In this document: positions 24,025 to 55,575 of the stretch, in pieces
Layout of the letters: the number at the start of each line of letters is the position of its first letter
Numbering within the stretch: position 1 is the first letter of the stretch
DNA from: Candidatus Levyibacteriota bacterium
GTDB taxonomy: Bacteria; Patescibacteriota; Microgenomatia; Levybacterales; UBA12049
Length of the DNA: 64,000 nt
Direction of reading: 5' to 3'
Assembly: GCA_016199085.1 (NCBI GenBank)
Contig: JACQHJ010000004.1
Span: 16,926-80,925 of the forward strand
Made by a program: the position numbers and the translations under genes
Notes under the pieces: model-generated
Database searches by the model: none
What the model was told of the DNA's origin: nothing
Seen by the model: only the letters and a program-made list of their open reading frames with translations

Positions 24025-24570
24025 ATGTCAATTTATACAAAATTTGGAGACAAAGGAAAGACCTCATTATATGCCGGAAAAACCGTTTCTAAAGGTAGTC
24101 TACGTGTCAACGCCTATGGAACGGTTGATGAGCTAAACAGTTTTTTGGGTATTGTTCTAACTTTAGTAAAAGATAAAAAATTAAAAGACAAACTCATCAA
24201 TATTCAAAAAGACCTATTTGAAGTTGGGGCTTGTCTTGCAAATCCTACGGGAAACAAAGATAGACTGTTGTCCAAGTATTTAACCCACAGGGTTTTGGAA
24301 TTTGAAGCTGAAATTGACAGTCTGACTAAAAAGCTTCCAAAACTGGAACACTTTATTTTGCCAGGCGGTGGAAAGCCGGGTTCAAGCCTGCATTTTGCAA
24401 GAACTTTGGTAAGAAGGGCGGAAAGAAGAGTGGTGGAGTTATCCGAAAAGGAAAAGATAAATACGGACATAATTATTTTCCTAAATAGACTTTCAGACCT
24501 TTTATTTATGTATGCAAGGGATATAAATTACAAAGAAAAACAAAAAGAATTACTATGGAAAAGTAGATAG
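24025..24570 (+). CDS. PduO-type ATP:cob(I)alamin adenosyltransferase
   Basis: MSIYTKFGDKGKTSLYAGKTVSKGSLRVNAYGTVDELNSFLG matches the PduO-type N-terminal signature (IYT..GD.G.T.L..G.RV.K......AYGT.DELNS.IG). Confidence 0.8.
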   Translation: MSIYTKFGDKGKTSLYAGKTVSKGSLRVNAYGTVDELNSFLGIVLTLVKDKKLKDKLINIQKDLFEVGACLANPTGNKDRLLSKYLTHRVLEFEAEIDSLTKKLPKLEHFILPGGGKPGSSLHFARTLVRRAERRVVELSEKEKINTDIIIFLNRLSDLLFMYARDINYKEKQKELLWKSR

Positions 24571-26647: not shown

Positions 26648-29020
26648 ATGAATAACTTTTTACTAAATATTACAAATATTGTTTCAATATTAATCTTTTT
26701 TTCCGTCTTTATAGTTTTAGCCGGAGCTTTGGTTGCGGTTCTTGGCTATCTTTTAATAATCTGGCATAGAAACAAAGAAAGAGAGAAAAAATCTCTTGAT
26801 TCAACGCTACTTCAAATAGCGCTTCCAAGGGAAAATGAAATTAAAATCGACGCTGCAGAACAGCTTTTTGCGGCTCTTGCAGGCATTAAACCAAGCGGAA
26901 GACTCTCCTTTTTAAAATACAGATATCCCATTTCCTTTGAGGTCGTTGGAATGCCAGGAGACATCAGATTCTATATCTACACACCCAATAAGTACAGGGA
27001 TATGATCGAAAAGCAGATCAACGCCTCATACCCCGACGCCGAAATTAAAGTTGCCGAAGAAGGAAATGTCAAAGGGGGAAAACCTGGTTTTATTCTGGGA
27101 AACGAATACAACATTTTCCAAAAAGACGGATTTGTCGCTTTTAAGCAGTTAAAACTCAAAGATTCAAACTACAAACCGATCAAAGTCTATAAAGATTTGG
27201 CAGTTGACCCCCTTTCTTCTTTAACGTCGGTTTTGTCCAAAATGAGCGAGGGGGAGGGAGCAGCCATCCAGATACTTATTTCGGGCGCCGATTCAAAATG
27301 GAGTAAGCTTGGAAGAAGTTTTATTGCAGAAACCAAAAAAAGAGAATCAAACCCAGAAACTGCAAAATACTCTTCAGATCCGAAAGAACTTGAGGGAATT
27401 GAGGGAAAGATTTCCAAACCAGGTTTTTATACCGTAGTAAGATTAGTTGTTTCATCAACTAGCAAGGAGGCTGCTGAGGCTCATTTAAATAACTTAGACG
27501 CTGCTTTTGATCAGTTTAGCGGCTCCAATTCTTTTACCAAAACCAGAATCTGGATGAAGGGAACCTTTATAAATGACTTTGTTTACAGGTATTTCCCAAT
27601 GAGAGGGTCTTTCTCGGTACTTACCTCTGAAGAGCTTGCGACAGTTTTCCATTTTCCAAACAAGTCTGTTGCGACACCTCATATCTACTGGTTAAATGCC
27701 AAAAAAGCACCCGCTCCCGTTCAAATACCGGAAAGCGGTTTATATCTTGGTATGAGCACATACAGAGGCATGGCAAAGCCAGTCTATATCCAAAAAGATG
27801 ATCGAAGAAGACACATGTATGTCATCGGAAAAACCGGTGTAGGGAAATCAGAGTTTCTAAAGGACATGATACTGCAAGACATTAAAAACGGAGAGGGAGT
27901 CTGTTTTATAGATCCGCATGACACAATCGATAAGCTTCTGCCTTTAATTCCGCCAGAACGAGCAGAAGACGTTATTTTGTTTGACCCCTCTGACACGGAT
28001 AGGCCGATGGGGTTAAACATGTTGGAAGCCCAGACTGAGCAGGAGAAACATTATATAGTCTCTTCAATAGTCGGACTTATGTATAAGCTCTATGATCCAA
28101 ATAAAACAGGTATTATCGGTCCTCGTTTTGAGCACGCAATTAGAAACGCGATGTTAACGGTTATGAGTGAACCCGGAGCTACTTTCATTGAAGTAGTCAG
28201 AGCTTTAACCGATTCAAGCTTTGTCCAAGAACTTTTGCCAAAAGTCCAGGATCCAATCATCAGACGCTACTGGACAGATCAGATTGCCCAAACCAATGAT
28301 TTCCATAAGTCCGAGACCTTGGATTACATTGTTTCCAAATTCGGAAGATTCGTTACCAATAAGATGATGCGAAACATCATCGGCCAGTCATATTCATCTT
28401 TTGACTTTAGAAAAGCTATGGATGAAGGCAAAATCCTTTTGGTCTCACTCTCCAAAGGAAAAATCGGAGAAGAAAATGCAAGCTTTTTAGGGTTGGTTTT
28501 GGTCCCAAAAATATTGGTAGCGGCAATGAGTAGACAAGACATGCCAGAAGAGCAAAGAAGAGATTTCTATTTATACGTTGACGAGTTCCAAAACTTTGCA
28601 ACCCCTGATTTTGCCCAGATTTTGTCCGAGGCCAGAAAATACAGGCTTAACTTAATCGTTGCCAACCAGTTTATCGGCCAAATGGACGAAGAGGTTAAAA
28701 ACGCTATTTTTGGAAACGTAGGATCAATAGTTTCTTTTAGGGTAGGCGTAACAGATGCAAATTACCTCCAGCATGAATATCAACCAACCTTTACAGAAGC
28801 CGATTTGATCAACATAGATGTTTTTAATGCTTATGTTAAAACAATCGTTAATAATGAGCCTGTAAGTCCGTTCTCCATGGATTTAACAAGAGATCTGACC
28901 AAAGAAAAACAAATGGAAAACCCAAGGGTAGCAGAGCTAATAAGGGAATTATCGAGGATAAAGTACGGTAAAGACGTAAGACTACTTGAGACCGCAATTG
29001 CCCAAAGAGCGAGGCTTTGA
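26648..29020 (+). CDS. VirD4/TraG/TraD-like type IV coupling-protein-family ATPase (membrane anchored)
   Basis: N-terminal TM helices, Walker A IGKTGVGKS and Walker B LYVDEFQNF, and a C-terminal KYRLNLIVANQ motif as in the TraG/TraD C-terminal domain. Confidence 0.7.
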   Translation: MNNFLLNITNIVSILIFFSVFIVLAGALVAVLGYLLIIWHRNKEREKKSLDSTLLQIALPRENEIKIDAAEQLFAALAGIKPSGRLSFLKYRYPISFEVVGMPGDIRFYIYTPNKYRDMIEKQINASYPDAEIKVAEEGNVKGGKPGFILGNEYNIFQKDGFVAFKQLKLKDSNYKPIKVYKDLAVDPLSSLTSVLSKMSEGEGAAIQILISGADSKWSKLGRSFIAETKKRESNPETAKYSSDPKELEGIEGKISKPGFYTVVRLVVSSTSKEAAEAHLNNLDAAFDQFSGSNSFTKTRIWMKGTFINDFVYRYFPMRGSFSVLTSEELATVFHFPNKSVATPHIYWLNAKKAPAPVQIPESGLYLGMSTYRGMAKPVYIQKDDRRRHMYVIGKTGVGKSEFLKDMILQDIKNGEGVCFIDPHDTIDKLLPLIPPERAEDVILFDPSDTDRPMGLNMLEAQTEQEKHYIVSSIVGLMYKLYDPNKTGIIGPRFEHAIRNAMLTVMSEPGATFIEVVRALTDSSFVQELLPKVQDPIIRRYWTDQIAQTNDFHKSETLDYIVSKFGRFVTNKMMRNIIGQSYSSFDFRKAMDEGKILLVSLSKGKIGEENASFLGLVLVPKILVAAMSRQDMPEEQRRDFYLYVDEFQNFATPDFAQILSEARKYRLNLIVANQFIGQMDEEVKNAIFGNVGSIVSFRVGVTDANYLQHEYQPTFTEADLINIDVFNAYVKTIVNNEPVSPFSMDLTRDLTKEKQMENPRVAELIRELSRIKYGKDVRLLETAIAQRARL

Positions 29021-29036
29021 TATAATTTCCCCACAT

Positions 29037-29107
29037 GCGCCCGTAGTTCAATGGTAGAACAGATGTCTTATACACATCATGCGTTGGTCCGATTCCAGCC
29101 GGGCGTA
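29037..29107 (+). tRNA. tRNA with anticodon UAU (tRNA-Ile reading AUA), CCA not encoded
   Basis: Manual cloverleaf: acceptor GCGCCCG/CGGGCGU (G1-U72), D-arm GTTC-AATGGTA-GAAC, anticodon stem GATGT/ACATC with loop cTTATAc, T-arm GTTGG-TCCGATT-CCAGC, discriminator A. Confidence 0.6.
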
Positions 29108-33115: not shown

Positions 33116-33535
33116 AGACAGGATTATACAAAACAGTTTCCTTATAAACAATTGTGGTTAAGGGTTAGGCTTTTGGGATTAAGCCCTATCCTAAATTGAG
33201 GCTAAAAATTTGTGTTGCGGGGCTAGGAGTTGCGCCTAGCCTATGAGATTATGCATCTGTTTCTTAGGTTACCCTAAGTGTCGGACTATATCTTCATCCC
33301 AAAACTTGGGAGCTCAGCGTGTAGTCTCTACGGGAATTCAACTATTATTGAATCTTCCCTCGGTATTGTCCTAAAAATTTAGGAGTTCACCGATATAGCT
33401 GAGTACTATTTTGGTATTACTATCAAAATGGCCCATTATTTTAAGCCTCATGTGCACTGTACACTACCCCGCGCATAGAATACATTATAGCACGAATTTG
33501 CCTTAATTTGAAGCAAATGATAAAATAGTTTTTGC

Positions 33536-33608
33536 GCCAGGGTAGCTCAGTGGTGGTAGCGCCGGATTCATATCCCGGTGGTCGCGAGTTCGATCCTCGC
33601 CCCTGGTA
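33536..33608 (+). tRNA. tRNA with CAU anticodon (Met, initiator or lysidine-Ile cannot be distinguished)
   Basis: Acceptor GCCAGGG/CCCTGGT, anticodon loop tTCATAt, T-arm GCGAG-TTCGATC-CTCGC, discriminator A. Confidence 0.7.
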
Positions 33609-37320: not shown

Positions 37321-38268
37321 ATGTTAGAAACAATCACAAGATCAAACGCAGAAATAGCAAGACACGTGGAAGTTCCAAGTTCTTGTCCTTTTGTTATTGT
37401 TGCAGTAGCTCCCTGTAGAAGCGGTACGACAGCACAGTTAAGAGTGTTTGCCGAGGCGGGAGCACAGGCTCATTACCAGCCTTTTAAAGCAATTCTTAGA
37501 GAAATGGAACAAGGAAGAGACTTGGACTTTAGAATCCCGGAAGGAGATGATCAAACGATTTTTATTAAAGAAACAGTCGGGCCTTATAATAAGCCTCAAT
37601 CGACACTTGATCCAATTGCTATTTTACTTGAAGCAGGATTTCCGATTGAAAAAGTCAGATTAATTCCGATGCTTCGTCAACCCTTGGCAACTTTTTCGTC
37701 ATGGATTAAAGTCAATGATGCAGTCAGGAAATACTTTAATGGCGCAATCCCCGTTGAAGATTTATTAGAAAATCTAATAACCTCATATAAAACAGTGGAT
37801 GAGATTAGGCAAAGGGCAATTAATGCCGGTATTCCTACGACTACATTCGTTCAGGAGGCTTTAAGGGATAATAGCCCAAGACAGGTGGTTCAATCACTGC
37901 TTACTGCCTCTGGCCTAAGATTTAGTCCCACATCCGTAAAAGGCTGGAGAAATCTTGTTCCGATGGGAGAGCCGGGGTCAAATATAGTATTTCATCCAAT
38001 AGGCACTGAGCCAAAAAAAGATGAGGGATCTCAGGTTATTCATCAGATACTTTTGCATAGCGATGGTTTGCAATATATATCAAAAGAAGATAGGGAGATT
38101 GATGTCTTAACCGCCGAGCAGGCAGGACAATTGGCCAATGCAGGTTTATATGAGCATTATGAGAAGTTTAGGAAAGCAGCTCAGGCAGACTTGGGTGTTG
38201 GTATTTGCCAATCAACGGAATATCAAGGATTTATGAGACGAAAATCCCAAGCGTTAAAGGGAGGATAA
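37321..38268 (+). CDS. sulfotransferase-like P-loop protein (hypothetical)
   Basis: VIVAVAPCRSGTTAQL resembles the 5'-PSB PAPS-binding loop (P.RSGTT.L) of bacterial sulfotransferases. It has a strong SD (GGAAAGGAGGTGAAATATG), elevated GC (~42% versus ~35% locally), and a hairpin spanning the stop codon (aaagGGAGG-ataag-CCTCCcttt). Confidence 0.45.
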   Translation: MLETITRSNAEIARHVEVPSSCPFVIVAVAPCRSGTTAQLRVFAEAGAQAHYQPFKAILREMEQGRDLDFRIPEGDDQTIFIKETVGPYNKPQSTLDPIAILLEAGFPIEKVRLIPMLRQPLATFSSWIKVNDAVRKYFNGAIPVEDLLENLITSYKTVDEIRQRAINAGIPTTTFVQEALRDNSPRQVVQSLLTASGLRFSPTSVKGWRNLVPMGEPGSNIVFHPIGTEPKKDEGSQVIHQILLHSDGLQYISKEDREIDVLTAEQAGQLANAGLYEHYEKFRKAAQADLGVGICQSTEYQGFMRRKSQALKGG

Positions 38269-54237: not shown

Positions 54238-55575
54238 ATGGAATTTGTTTCCGACCTCCATCTTCACTCCAAATATTCAAGGGCTGTATCGAAAGACATG
54301 AATCTTCCAACTATGGCTTTCTGGGCTACCAAGAAGGGTTTAAACCTTCTTTCAACAGGAGACTGGACTCATCCTATGTGGATTAGAGAAATAAAGCAAA
54401 ACCTGGAGGAGACGGAACAGGGTCTGTTTAGATTAAAGACAGATAAAAATTCTTTAATGCGTTTTATACTTTCCGTTGAAGTCTCAAGTATCTACACTCA
54501 GGGAGGACAAGTCAGAAGGATACACAATTTAATCTTCTCTCCCTCCATTGAAACCTCTGAGAAAATTAATCAAGAGCTTATTAAAAGAGGGTGTAATCTT
54601 GGTTCTGACGGAAGACCGATTATTGGGCTTTCTTCAATTAATCTTTGTGAACTTGTTTTTTCAATAGACAAAGATGCCATGGTTATTCCGTGTCACATTT
54701 GGACCCCTTGGTTTTCCATGTTTGGTTCAAAATCAGGCTTTGACAGCGTTGAAGAGTGTTTCGGGGAATTTGCTAGAGAAATTTATGGAATTGAGACGGG
54801 TCTTTCCTCAGATCCGTATATGAACTGGCAGATAGGAAATTTAAAAAACAGATCTATCCTTTCTTTTTCGGACGCCCATTCTCCTGCCAAAATGGGAAGA
54901 GAAGCAACGGTTTTTATGACCAAAGACGAAAAGACAAAGACCATTACATATAAAGACATATCTGATGCGATTAAAAAAGATCCCAAAGCCAAATTTAAGA
55001 TTGGCTATACGATCGAATTTTACCCGGAAGAGGGAAAATACCACTATACGGGGCACCGAAACTGCAACTATGTCCAGGTCCCAGATCTTACAAGAAAAGA
55101 GGGAATAATCTGTCCTGTTTGTAAAAGACCTTTGACCGTTGGTGTCATGCATAGGGTTGAGGACTTGGCAAAAGACGGGTTTGAAAAGGAGGTTTCAAGA
55201 AAAAATCAAACTGGAGTTAAGTGGATTTTGGATCCAGGCAAAATTCACCCTCCGTTTGTAAAATTGGTTCCTTTAAATGAGATTATTGCCGAAAGTCTTA
55301 AATCTAGTGTTTCCTCACAGAAAGTCAAAGACCTGTTTGATAAACTTTGTCTGACATTCGGATCGGAAATAAAAATCCTACTTAAAACTTCCTTAGAAGA
55401 TATAAAAAAAGAAGCAGGCGAAAGGGTAGCAGAGGGTGTTGGAAAAGTAAGAAGAGGAGATATTGTCATTGAACCGGGATATGACGGCGTCTATGGAGTA
55501 GTTAAAATTTGGAATGACGAGCCGCAAAAAAATGAGCAAATTAATATAAGCTCACAGATTGGCATTGACTTTTAA
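54238..55575 (+). CDS. PHP-domain nuclease, endonuclease Q (EndoQ)-like
   Basis: N-terminal PHP signature FVSDLHLHSKYS, internal His/Asp metal ligands, and a Zn-finger H..C-x18-CPVC. The length and layout match archaeal/bacterial EndoQ. Confidence 0.55.
   Translation: MEFVSDLHLHSKYSRAVSKDMNLPTMAFWATKKGLNLLSTGDWTHPMWIREIKQNLEETEQGLFRLKTDKNSLMRFILSVEVSSIYTQGGQVRRIHNLIFSPSIETSEKINQELIKRGCNLGSDGRPIIGLSSINLCELVFSIDKDAMVIPCHIWTPWFSMFGSKSGFDSVEECFGEFAREIYGIETGLSSDPYMNWQIGNLKNRSILSFSDAHSPAKMGREATVFMTKDEKTKTITYKDISDAIKKDPKAKFKIGYTIEFYPEEGKYHYTGHRNCNYVQVPDLTRKEGIICPVCKRPLTVGVMHRVEDLAKDGFEKEVSRKNQTGVKWILDPGKIHPPFVKLVPLNEIIAESLKSSVSSQKVKDLFDKLCLTFGSEIKILLKTSLEDIKKEAGERVAEGVGKVRRGDIVIEPGYDGVYGVVKIWNDEPQKNEQINISSQIGIDF

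Follow-up and report, generated by a model that had tools for sequence, protein, structure and literature searches.

In bacteria, the isoleucine codon AUA is usually read by a tRNA with a CAU anticodon, tRNAIle2(CAU), in which C34 is modified to lysidine by the enzyme TilS. This modification is generally regarded as indispensable to bacteria and as present in nearly all of them. Here, we analyze a 64,000-nucleotide stretch (referred to as the window) of contig JACQHJ010000004.1 of a Candidatus Levyibacteriota bacterium, a member of the Patescibacteria (also named Candidate Phyla Radiation, CPR), which harbors a gene for a tRNA-Ile with a genomically encoded UAU anticodon, tRNA-Ile(UAU). The original prediction of this gene described the lysidine pathway as the usual one and a genomic UAU anticodon as rare, in agreement with the literature (PMC3575796, PMC8450103). 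Genomic tRNAIle(UAU) was reported in nine bacterial species without tilS, distributed over three clades, while other species carry both systems (PMC3575796), and a survey with tRNAscan-SE 2.0 listed Ile(UAU) in 17 complete genomes (Bifidobacterium, Mycoplasma, Neorickettsia; PMC8450103). Overall, the gene is documented in about 17−19 cultured species (PMC8450103, PMC4013482).

In Mycoplasma (M.) mobile, U34 of tRNAIle2(UAU) is unmodified, an Arg residue of isoleucyl-tRNA synthetase (IleRS) replaces a Trp that stacks on the wobble base, and the tRNA binds AUA, but not AUG, on the ribosome of the same organism (PMC3575796). In Mollicutes tilS is found between pth and ftsH, and its absence from this site is part of the M. 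mobile case (PMC1635315). A suppressor of a tilS deletion in Bacillus (B.) subtilis also carries an unmodified U34; here AUA is bound strongly and AUG weakly, and misincorporation is ~1e-3 (PMC3919564). In the literature searched, neither lysidine nor the decoding of AUA was found to be discussed for Patescibacteria or CPR. Thus, a genomic bacterial tRNAIle(UAU) is already known, but rare; what sets the present case apart is its fixation across a broad uncultured clade rather than in isolated species. With modest confidence, we conclude that tRNA-Ile(UAU) is a functional, chromosomal and vertically inherited tRNA and that AUA is read as isoleucine mainly, and probably solely, by this tRNA, both in this genome and in the related Microgenomates (Levybacteria, Daviesbacteria).

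The tRNA-Ile(UAU) gene and its orthologues

The gene is located at positions 29037−29107 on the + strand and comprises 71 nt including the discriminator base A73, while CCA is not encoded. The assignment is based on ARAGORN, which reports tRNA-Ile(tat) at 29037−29108 (+), on an end-to-end match of 29037−29107 to Rfam RF00005 with 65.1 bits (gathering score 29), and on orthologues. Together, the programs confirm the coordinates, the UAU anticodon, the loop and the fold of the 71-nt cloverleaf that had originally been drawn by hand, i.e., neither assigns a different anticodon or structure. Read from the 5′ end, the acceptor strand GCGCCCG is followed by U8 and A9, the D arm GUUC-AAUGGUA-GAAC, a single A, the anticodon arm GAUGU-CUUAUAC-ACAUC, the 4-nt variable loop AUGC, the T arm GUUGG-UCCGAUU-CCAGC, the second acceptor strand CGGGCGU and the terminal A; the acceptor stem contains a G1·U72 wobble pair. 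The anticodon TAT (U34 A35 U36) is found at 29069−29071 (+), inside the loop C32-U33-U34-A35-U36-A37-C38 (29067−29073). The T-loop, UCCGAUU at 29088−29094 (+), is atypical as originally noted, with C55 (position 29089) in place of the near-universal U55.

The canonical cloverleaf with TAT in a 7-nt loop flanked by U33 and A37 is that of a bacterial tRNA-Ile(UAU). The CAT-encoded anticodon (C34) of a lysidine-type tRNA is not found; TAT is encoded in the window as well as in all 11 orthologue sequences. Because the anticodon is encoded as TAT, lysidine cannot form and TilS is not needed for this tRNA. Assignment to the allo-tRNA(UAU) class, which is defined by an 8/4 or 9/3 acceptor branch and a long variable arm (PMC5389517), was considered and rejected; the window tRNA displays 7/5 geometry and its variable loop is 4 nt long, and among the loci compared a long arm is confined to unrelated ones (L009, L017, L023 and others).

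A sigma-70-like promoter is predicted at 28998−29026 (+) with a motif match of 10/12; it is composed of TTGCCC, a 17-nt spacer and TATAAT, and a TG ahead of the latter box makes it an extended −10 promoter. It ends 10 nt before the tRNA gene, within the 3′ end of a VirD4-like open reading frame (ORF). A TATAAT or TACAAT −10 box is found 7−10 nt upstream of every orthologous tRNA copy, while the flanks are divergent. The motif match together with this conservation of position suggests that the element functions as the promoter of tRNA-Ile(UAU).

Orthologues were identified by searching GTDB genomes and metagenomes with a pattern in which the D arm and the CTTATAC loop were fixed and the anticodon stem was free. 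CPR-type UAU tRNAs of 71−72 nt were matched in GTDB genomes (L001, L003, L004, L006, L007 and L008) and in metagenomes (L013, L016, L021, L024, L025 and L028), and sequences of both lengths were aligned using MAFFT with the variable loop padded with N. The hosts are Levybacteria, Daviesbacteria and related metagenome-assembled genomes (MAGs), which share a slot composed of a VirD4-like gene, the tRNA and xerC. In the window, the upstream anchor of this slot is a VirD4/TraG-like coupling ATPase (DUF8128; 26648−29020, + strand), and the downstream anchor is a XerC/XerD-type tyrosine recombinase (30806−31666, − strand) with 97% amino-acid identity to that of L001. L001 is a MAG of the Patescibacteria, obtained from Hainich well H43, and shares synteny and 75−81% DNA identity with the window; protein identities are 93% for the VirD4-like ATPase, 74% for GlmU, 97% for XerC, 71% for MurI and 77% for MurD. 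The tRNA is 100% identical between the window, L001 and L025, while the flanking genes are only ~78% (75−81%) identical at the DNA level.

The same gene order is found in two Daviesbacteria MAGs and in three MAGs labelled “uncultured Gammaproteobacteria” (L003, L004 and L007, i.e., CAZWTE01, CAZVEX01 and CAZFZP01). The latter three display CPR synteny and 60−68% protein identity to the window, and their taxonomic label is apparently incorrect. The same seems to hold for the label “Candidatus Sulfotelmatobacter”, which is given to one homologue of FtsH and one of the VirD4-like protein.

Because the search pattern forces an identical D arm and loop, i.e., the invariance of these elements in the “type A” sequences is imposed by the pattern, the slot was sampled again, independently, via protein homology. 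Four genomes were reached through FtsH or VirD4-like homologues (L035, a 936-kb contig; L037, 863 kb; L038, 679 kb; L039, 819 kb), and in 4/4 the VirD4-like gene and xerC enclose a UAU tRNA. In these tRNAs, the D arm as well as the acceptor, anticodon and T stems are unlike those of the window and the loop is CUUAUAA, and for the anticodon the concern about the pattern is thereby lifted. Across the 11 distinct orthologue sequences, all 231 of 231 stem cells are standard pairs, and compensatory changes on both sides are seen in 13 of 21 stem pairs. None of 500 shuffles reached the observed values, and sliding the partners by 1−3 columns reduced pairing to 34−52%. Positions 32−37 (CUUAUA) are invariant across all orthologues. 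Judged from this comparative evidence, the tRNA-Ile(UAU) gene is under purifying selection and functional, i.e., it is not a pseudogene.

The U55C replacement is also found in the Ile(UAU) tRNAs of L013 and L035, which have other backbones, and in a tRNA-Met of L037 (4084−4156). This recurrence, in three independent Ile(UAU) backgrounds and one tRNA-Met, suggests that the requirement for pseudouridine-55 is relaxed in the clade.

A separate family of UAU tRNAs, 86−94 nt in length, was also observed (L005, L009, L010, L012, L014, L015, L017, L018, L020, L022, L023, L026 and L027) in Acidobacteria, Obscuribacterales and unbinned contigs. Its members combine the D arm and the CUUAUAC loop of the window tRNA with an extra arm composed of a covarying 4-bp stem and, in most, the loop CAGAUUA or one- or two-base variants thereof; the geometry is sometimes 8/4 or 9/4. 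The family fits or resembles the allo-tRNA(UAU) of Mukai et al. 2017 (PMC5389517), and its 7/5-geometry members may be an undescribed variant. A different situation is seen in L019 (Ga0075113_1004592), where 25 tRNA genes are packed within 2.1 kb (699−2806). Among them are Ile(UAU) and Ile(GAU) genes that are nearly duplicates of each other, with position 34 as the main difference, and that exemplify the origin of a UAU tRNA from tRNAIle(GAU). In appearance, the array is phage- or element-like.

AUA codons, AUN-box tRNAs and the search for tilS

The codon AUA accounts for 431 of the 18,797 codons in 53 window ORFs, which corresponds to 22.9 per 1000 codons and to 29.7% of the Ile codons; the window G+C content is 37.1%. 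These values bear out the original expectation of an AT-rich genome with frequent AUA. For comparison, usage above 10 per 1000 is classed as “high” and E. coli uses 4.9 (PMC12514573). The meaning of AUA was judged from codon-level alignments of window genes with their orthologues. In the close relatives L001 and L025, the non-AUA partners of window AUA codons are mostly AUU (35/55), followed by Val and Leu codons, with AUG seen in 2. In Daviesbacteria-type loci, which are more distant, AUU or AUC accounts for 69/143 partners and AUG for 14/143. Overall, the codons aligned with AUA are mostly AUU, AUC or AUA, and the share of AUG among them is 2% in close and 9−10% in distant relatives, and positions with AUU show a similar profile. 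The amino-acid substitution profile of AUA resembles that of AUU/AUC and differs from that of AUG, and UGA is used in the window solely as a stop codon. On the evidence of these alignments, AUA is an ordinary, frequent isoleucine codon, and because it is both frequent and Ile-coding, a competent AUA decoder is required.

Two genes for tRNAs with a CAU anticodon are found ~4.4 kb downstream of tRNA-Ile(UAU). The first, at 33215−33473 (−), is initiator-like and split by a group I intron into exon 1 (33473−33444) and exon 2 (33253−33215). The intron (33443−33254) is 190 nt long, matches Rfam Intron_gpI with 72.7 bits, contains no ORF and resides between nt 33 and 34 (CU/CAUAA). ARAGORN, also when run in intron mode, misses the split gene, which was recovered by manual splicing; the program recognizes the in-silico spliced product as tRNA(CAU), with the acceptor stem CGCGGGG/CCCCGCA and a C1×A72 mismatch, a hallmark of bacterial initiator tRNAs. 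Automatic annotation would report a “missing” initiator tRNA. The intron is absent from the orthologues in L001, L035 and L039, the last of which is exactly identical to the predicted spliced sequence, while the sole difference in the other two is a compensatory 26/44 change. The intron therefore looks like a recent gain.

The initiator-like tRNA itself (window; L001 5445−5514; L035 3294−3363; L039 10605−10674) is unusual. It has a short D-loop without G18G19, the T-loop CGCAACU (no U54-U55-C56), U11-A24 instead of the A11-U24 typical of initiators, and an anticodon stem without the three G-C pairs; the intron-less copies score below the Rfam tRNA gathering score. As it is nearly identical across genomes, this tRNA is presumably functional despite its odd structure.

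The second tRNA(CAU) gene, at 33536−33608 (+), is of an elongator-like Met type with G1·U72, C3-G70, A4-U69 and G5-C68, and has orthologues in L035 (2673−2745) and L039 (10470−10542). In addition to the conserved G1·U72 pair, which is common to the Met-type tRNAs of L007, L036, L037 and L038, it displays an A31×C39 mismatch and the unusual loop UUCAUAU (U32, U38). According to the acceptor-stem discriminators of Silva et al. 2006, C4-G69/C5-G68 is usual for tRNAIle2(CAU) (PMC1635315). By this heuristic, the local AUN cluster would comprise Ile(UAU), the initiator-like tRNA and an elongator of Met type, and none of the tRNAs in the region would be of the lysidine type.

A search for tilS with Pfam/NCBIfam profiles gave no PF01171 match among window ORFs of at least 100 aa, and a scan of all ORFs with 80 aa or more, covering the window and L001−L028, gave no PP-loop motif (SGGxDS and relaxed forms). 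In the window, the neighbors of pth are genes for a phosphoribosyltransferase (PRTase) and a VTT-domain protein, and those of ftsH are a tryptophanyl/tyrosyl-tRNA synthetase (TrpRS/TyrRS)-type gene and a DUF975 gene. Likewise, no tilS is found beside pth or ftsH at eight loci on contigs of seven relatives (L029−L031, L034−L037 and L039, the latter at the ftsH start). Protein searches started from the PRTase/pth pair, FtsH and the VirD4-like ATPase matched close relatives at the Levybacteria level only, in which the tilS-free synteny recurs. The gene ileS is not found in the 64-kb window or in the related loci examined. Two candidates were rejected. One was a tilS adjoining the window on the upstream side of an hpt-like gene, but the ORF at 24−575 is of the ComF family and the 209-aa PRTase is generic rather than Hpt. 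The other was a 315-aa ORF at 37321−38268 (+), two genes upstream of ftsH and separated from it by the TrpRS/TyrRS-type gene, as a divergent TilS; this ORF shows neither a Pfam match (E-value up to 1) nor a PP-loop motif. The latter ORF is conserved, with no clear function, as is a 445-aa ORF at 54238−55575 (+), upstream of the PRTase-pth pair, homologues of which carry PF27218 (MJ0043_C).

A genome-wide absence of tilS is plausible but unproven; we consider it somewhat more probable than its presence. That tRNA-Ile(UAU) replaces the TilS system in this genome is, by a slight balance, the more probable state, while coexistence is possible.

Proposed decoding route and alternative explanations

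In bacteria, the Ile identity set comprises A73, C4-G69, U12-A23, G16, U20, U21, C29-G41, A35, U36, A37 and A38 (PMC9976931), of which A73, C4-G69, U12-A23, U20, A35, U36 and A37 are present in tRNA-Ile(UAU). The 27-43 pair, which was originally proposed for examination as an identity element, is not conserved; it varies among the orthologues (G-C, U-A, A-U or C-G). Position 38 is A in the orthologues of L035, L037 and L038, and C in the window copy. The presence of U29-A41, U16 and C38 together with C55 suggests lineage-specific recognition rules.

According to the proposed route, transcription of tRNA-Ile(UAU) would start at a dedicated extended −10 promoter and yield only a very short leader, after which the transcript would be trimmed and CCA added post-transcriptionally. 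IleRS would then charge the tRNA via A73, C4-G69, U12-A23, A35, U36 and A37, the latter possibly as N6-threonylcarbamoyladenosine (t6A), and U34 would pair with the third base of AUA. With M. mobile tRNAIle2(UAU) and the tilS-deletion suppressor of B. subtilis as precedents, U34 probably carries no, or only minimal, modification. Misreading of AUG may be limited by weak U34·G pairing on a co-adapted ribosome and by competition from the neighboring tRNA-Met. In the clade, the lysidine route (TilS and tRNAIle2(CAU)) would most likely have been replaced.

Several observations weigh against tRNA-Ile(UAU) as the principal AUA decoder. The window covers 64 kb of a genome of ~0.7−1 Mb, i.e., ~6−9% was examined, and tilS, tRNAIle2(CAU) and ileS may lie elsewhere. 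All comparative sequences are MAGs or metagenome contigs. The assignment of the tRNA at 33536 to Met rather than Ile2 is based on heuristic discriminators derived from other phyla. Furthermore, the E. coli Ile elements G16 (here U), U21 (A), C29-G41 (U-A) and A38 (C) are absent, although the E. coli set may not fit a CPR IleRS, and the usual pseudouridine-55 would be prevented by C55.

The first of these points bears directly on the only serious rival explanation, to which we assign an appreciable but minority probability, namely that tRNA-Ile(UAU) is functional but redundant beside an intact TilS and tRNAIle2(CAU) encoded elsewhere, with AUA being read by both the lysidine-containing LAU and the UAU anticodons. 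Such coexistence, which also counts against sole decoding by UAU, is documented in bacteria and was described as a “transition state” (PMC3575796); TAT genes are found in 19 species (tRNADB-CE, PMC4013482), only nine of which were reported to lack tilS, and the conservation of TilS is described as almost universal among bacteria (PMC12514573). These arguments are countered by the lack of tilS in the window and at pth/ftsH in the eight related loci, by an AUN cluster without an Ile2-like CAU gene, and by the purifying selection on the UAU gene, which is very strong throughout a wide clade rich in AUA codons and would be less expected for a dispensable backup.

It is very improbable that the tRNA is the cargo or attachment site of a mobile element, i.e., part or target of an integrative conjugative element or a prophage that provides a tRNA for AUA, even if its neighbors are a gene resembling those for type IV coupling proteins and one of the phage-integrase family. 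The order coupling ATPase/tRNA/xerC is embedded among nrd, murI, murD, tgt, trpS and ftsH and is maintained from Levybacteria to Daviesbacteria at 60−93% protein identity, and the recombinase, which scores as XerC/XerD, shares 97% identity with its L001 counterpart. The search pattern gave 0 exact matches in 2.9 million viral contigs, while direct repeats and element boundaries were not looked for.

Still less credible is a pseudo-tRNA or decaying relic. The features that would favor it are G1·U72, C55 and the 4-nt variable loop, all of which are atypical, and the lack of an encoded CCA. Against these stand the score of 65.1 bits, perfect covariation, the conserved promoter box and identity in genomes that are ~22% diverged in the flanks, and C55 recurs in otherwise well-conserved tRNAs of the clade. 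The original prediction had held that tilS together with a lysidine-type tRNA would render this tRNA a likely pseudo-tRNA; given the sequence identity, covariation, promoter and occurrence in 4/4 independent genomes, pseudogene status is excluded whatever the status of tilS.

Equally far-fetched is a different identity or a recoding, in which the UAU tRNA would be charged with another amino acid (e.g., Met) or read beyond AUA, because, even with some E. coli Ile identity elements missing and with codes known to vary (AUA denotes Met in some mitochondria, and among CPR lineages UGA is recoded in Gracilibacteria and Absconditabacteria), AUA aligns with AUU/AUC as AUU does, AUG partners amount to 2% in close and 9−10% in distant relatives, A73, C4-G69, U12-A23, A35, U36 and A37 are Ile-like, and UGA serves as stop only.

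Returning to tRNA-Ile(UAU) as the AUA decoder, the wider proposition is that an entire class-level branch of the CPR, i.e., the Microgenomates (Levybacteria, Daviesbacteria and relatives), abandoned TilS and lysidine, such that AUA (~23 per 1000 codons) is read solely by a genomic tRNA-Ile(UAU); we regard the chances of this as evenly balanced. If true, no other bacterial clade in which AUA is decoded through U34 would come near this branch in size or age, and the branch would be expected to display clade-wide co-adaptation of IleRS and the decoding center, or a U34 modification of a new kind, against AUG misreading. In that case, the repeated occurrence of U55C in T-loops and the unusual structure of the initiator tRNA would be signs of a generally relaxed or altered tRNA architecture in the clade. 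If tilS is absent, the Microgenomates would offer a natural, large-scale test of AUA/AUG discrimination by U34 and of the co-evolution of IleRS and ribosome, tilS would be unsafe as a universal marker or essential gene in analyses of CPR completeness and of minimal translation systems, and annotation pipelines would need to allow for Ile(TAT) and for initiator tRNAs that are split by an intron or non-canonical. With tilS present, the locus would be a further example of the redundant transition state.

Gene content of the window and comparison with known systems

The window harbors chromosomal housekeeping genes with a CPR flavor, i.e., those for an archaeal-type GlmU, two class A penicillin-binding proteins, PGK, GAPDH and NrdR, as well as an ATP-dependent DNA ligase, Tgt, MurI, MurD, SmpB together with transfer-messenger RNA (tmRNA), and the VirD4-like ATPase. 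A 207-aa phosphoribosyltransferase of the window shares 100% identity with MBI3984955.1, a protein encoded on an 87,862-bp contig of a Candidatus Levybacteria MAG. The ribonucleotide reductase (RNR; 18728−23572, + strand, 1614 aa) contains inteins with LAGLIDADG homing-endonuclease domains, and FtsH (39358−42603, + strand, 1081 aa) contains one intein. The proteins of relatives are intein-free, with 802−808 aa for RNR (L038/L039) and 603−622 aa for FtsH. Judged from these inteins and the group I intron, the genome is rich in selfish self-splicing elements. The tmRNA gene (~418 nt, 2491−2908, − strand), which adjoins smpB (2952−3401, − strand), scores 101 bits with Rfam and is missed by ARAGORN. 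An adenosylcobalamin (AdoCbl)-II riboswitch match at 24565−24644 (+), between the gene for a cobalamin adenosyltransferase and an unannotated 403-aa ORF, is barely above threshold (37.6 vs 36.5 bits). A strong AdoCbl-II copy (54−55 bits) is found directly after the RNR gene in L038 (3570−3647) and L039 (3596−3675).

Among the known systems with a genomic tRNAIle(UAU), M. mobile (PMC3575796, PMC1635315) shares with the locus described here an Ile-type tRNA with a genomic UAU anticodon, a small AT-rich genome with many AUA codons, and the absence of tilS from the pth/ftsH neighborhood; the mechanism based on an unmodified U34 that is proposed here is taken from this organism. Unlike M. mobile, which belongs to the Mollicutes and is a single species, the present hosts are CPR/Patescibacteria in which the tRNA is fixed across a broad clade, and the window tRNA carries C38 and C55. 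In the genus-level lineages Bifidobacterium and Neorickettsia, tRNAIle3(UAU) replaces tRNAIle2(CAU) (PMC3575796, PMC8450103), and the use of UAU is a property of the lineage, as it is here. However, these organisms are known to lack tilS and to carry a eukaryote-type IleRS2, while in the Levybacteria the loss of tilS is a probable one. In Lactobacillus casei/plantarum, Cyanothece and Ferrimonas, a TAT gene is found beside tilS (PMC3575796), which would be the exact analogue if tilS is encoded elsewhere in the present genome. In contrast to most of these species, AUA usage is much higher here, and neither tilS nor Ile2(CAU) is found in the window or syntenic regions.

Experiments on the B. subtilis suppressor tRNA1Ile(G34U) (Fabret 2011; Kohrer 2014, PMC3919564) established that a tRNAIle in which U34 carries no modification can sustain AUA decoding. 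This suppressor arose from tRNAIle(GAU) by mutation in the laboratory, whereas the Levybacteria tRNA is a natural, ancient and conserved gene. The canonical tRNAIle2(CAU)/TilS system performs the same task, i.e., decoding AUA as Ile, with a similar acceptor stem (G3-C70, C4-G69, C5-G68, A73), and differs in that the anticodon is encoded as CAT rather than TAT. Outside the bacteria, a U-derived wobble base reads AUA, as here, in the archaeal tRNAIle(UAU) of Nanoarchaeum (N.) equitans and Korarchaeum and in the eukaryotic tRNAIle with the anticodon pseudouridine-A-pseudouridine. N. equitans, too, is an ultra-small episymbiont. These archaeal and eukaryotic systems differ from the one described here in domain, type of IleRS and modification enzymes.

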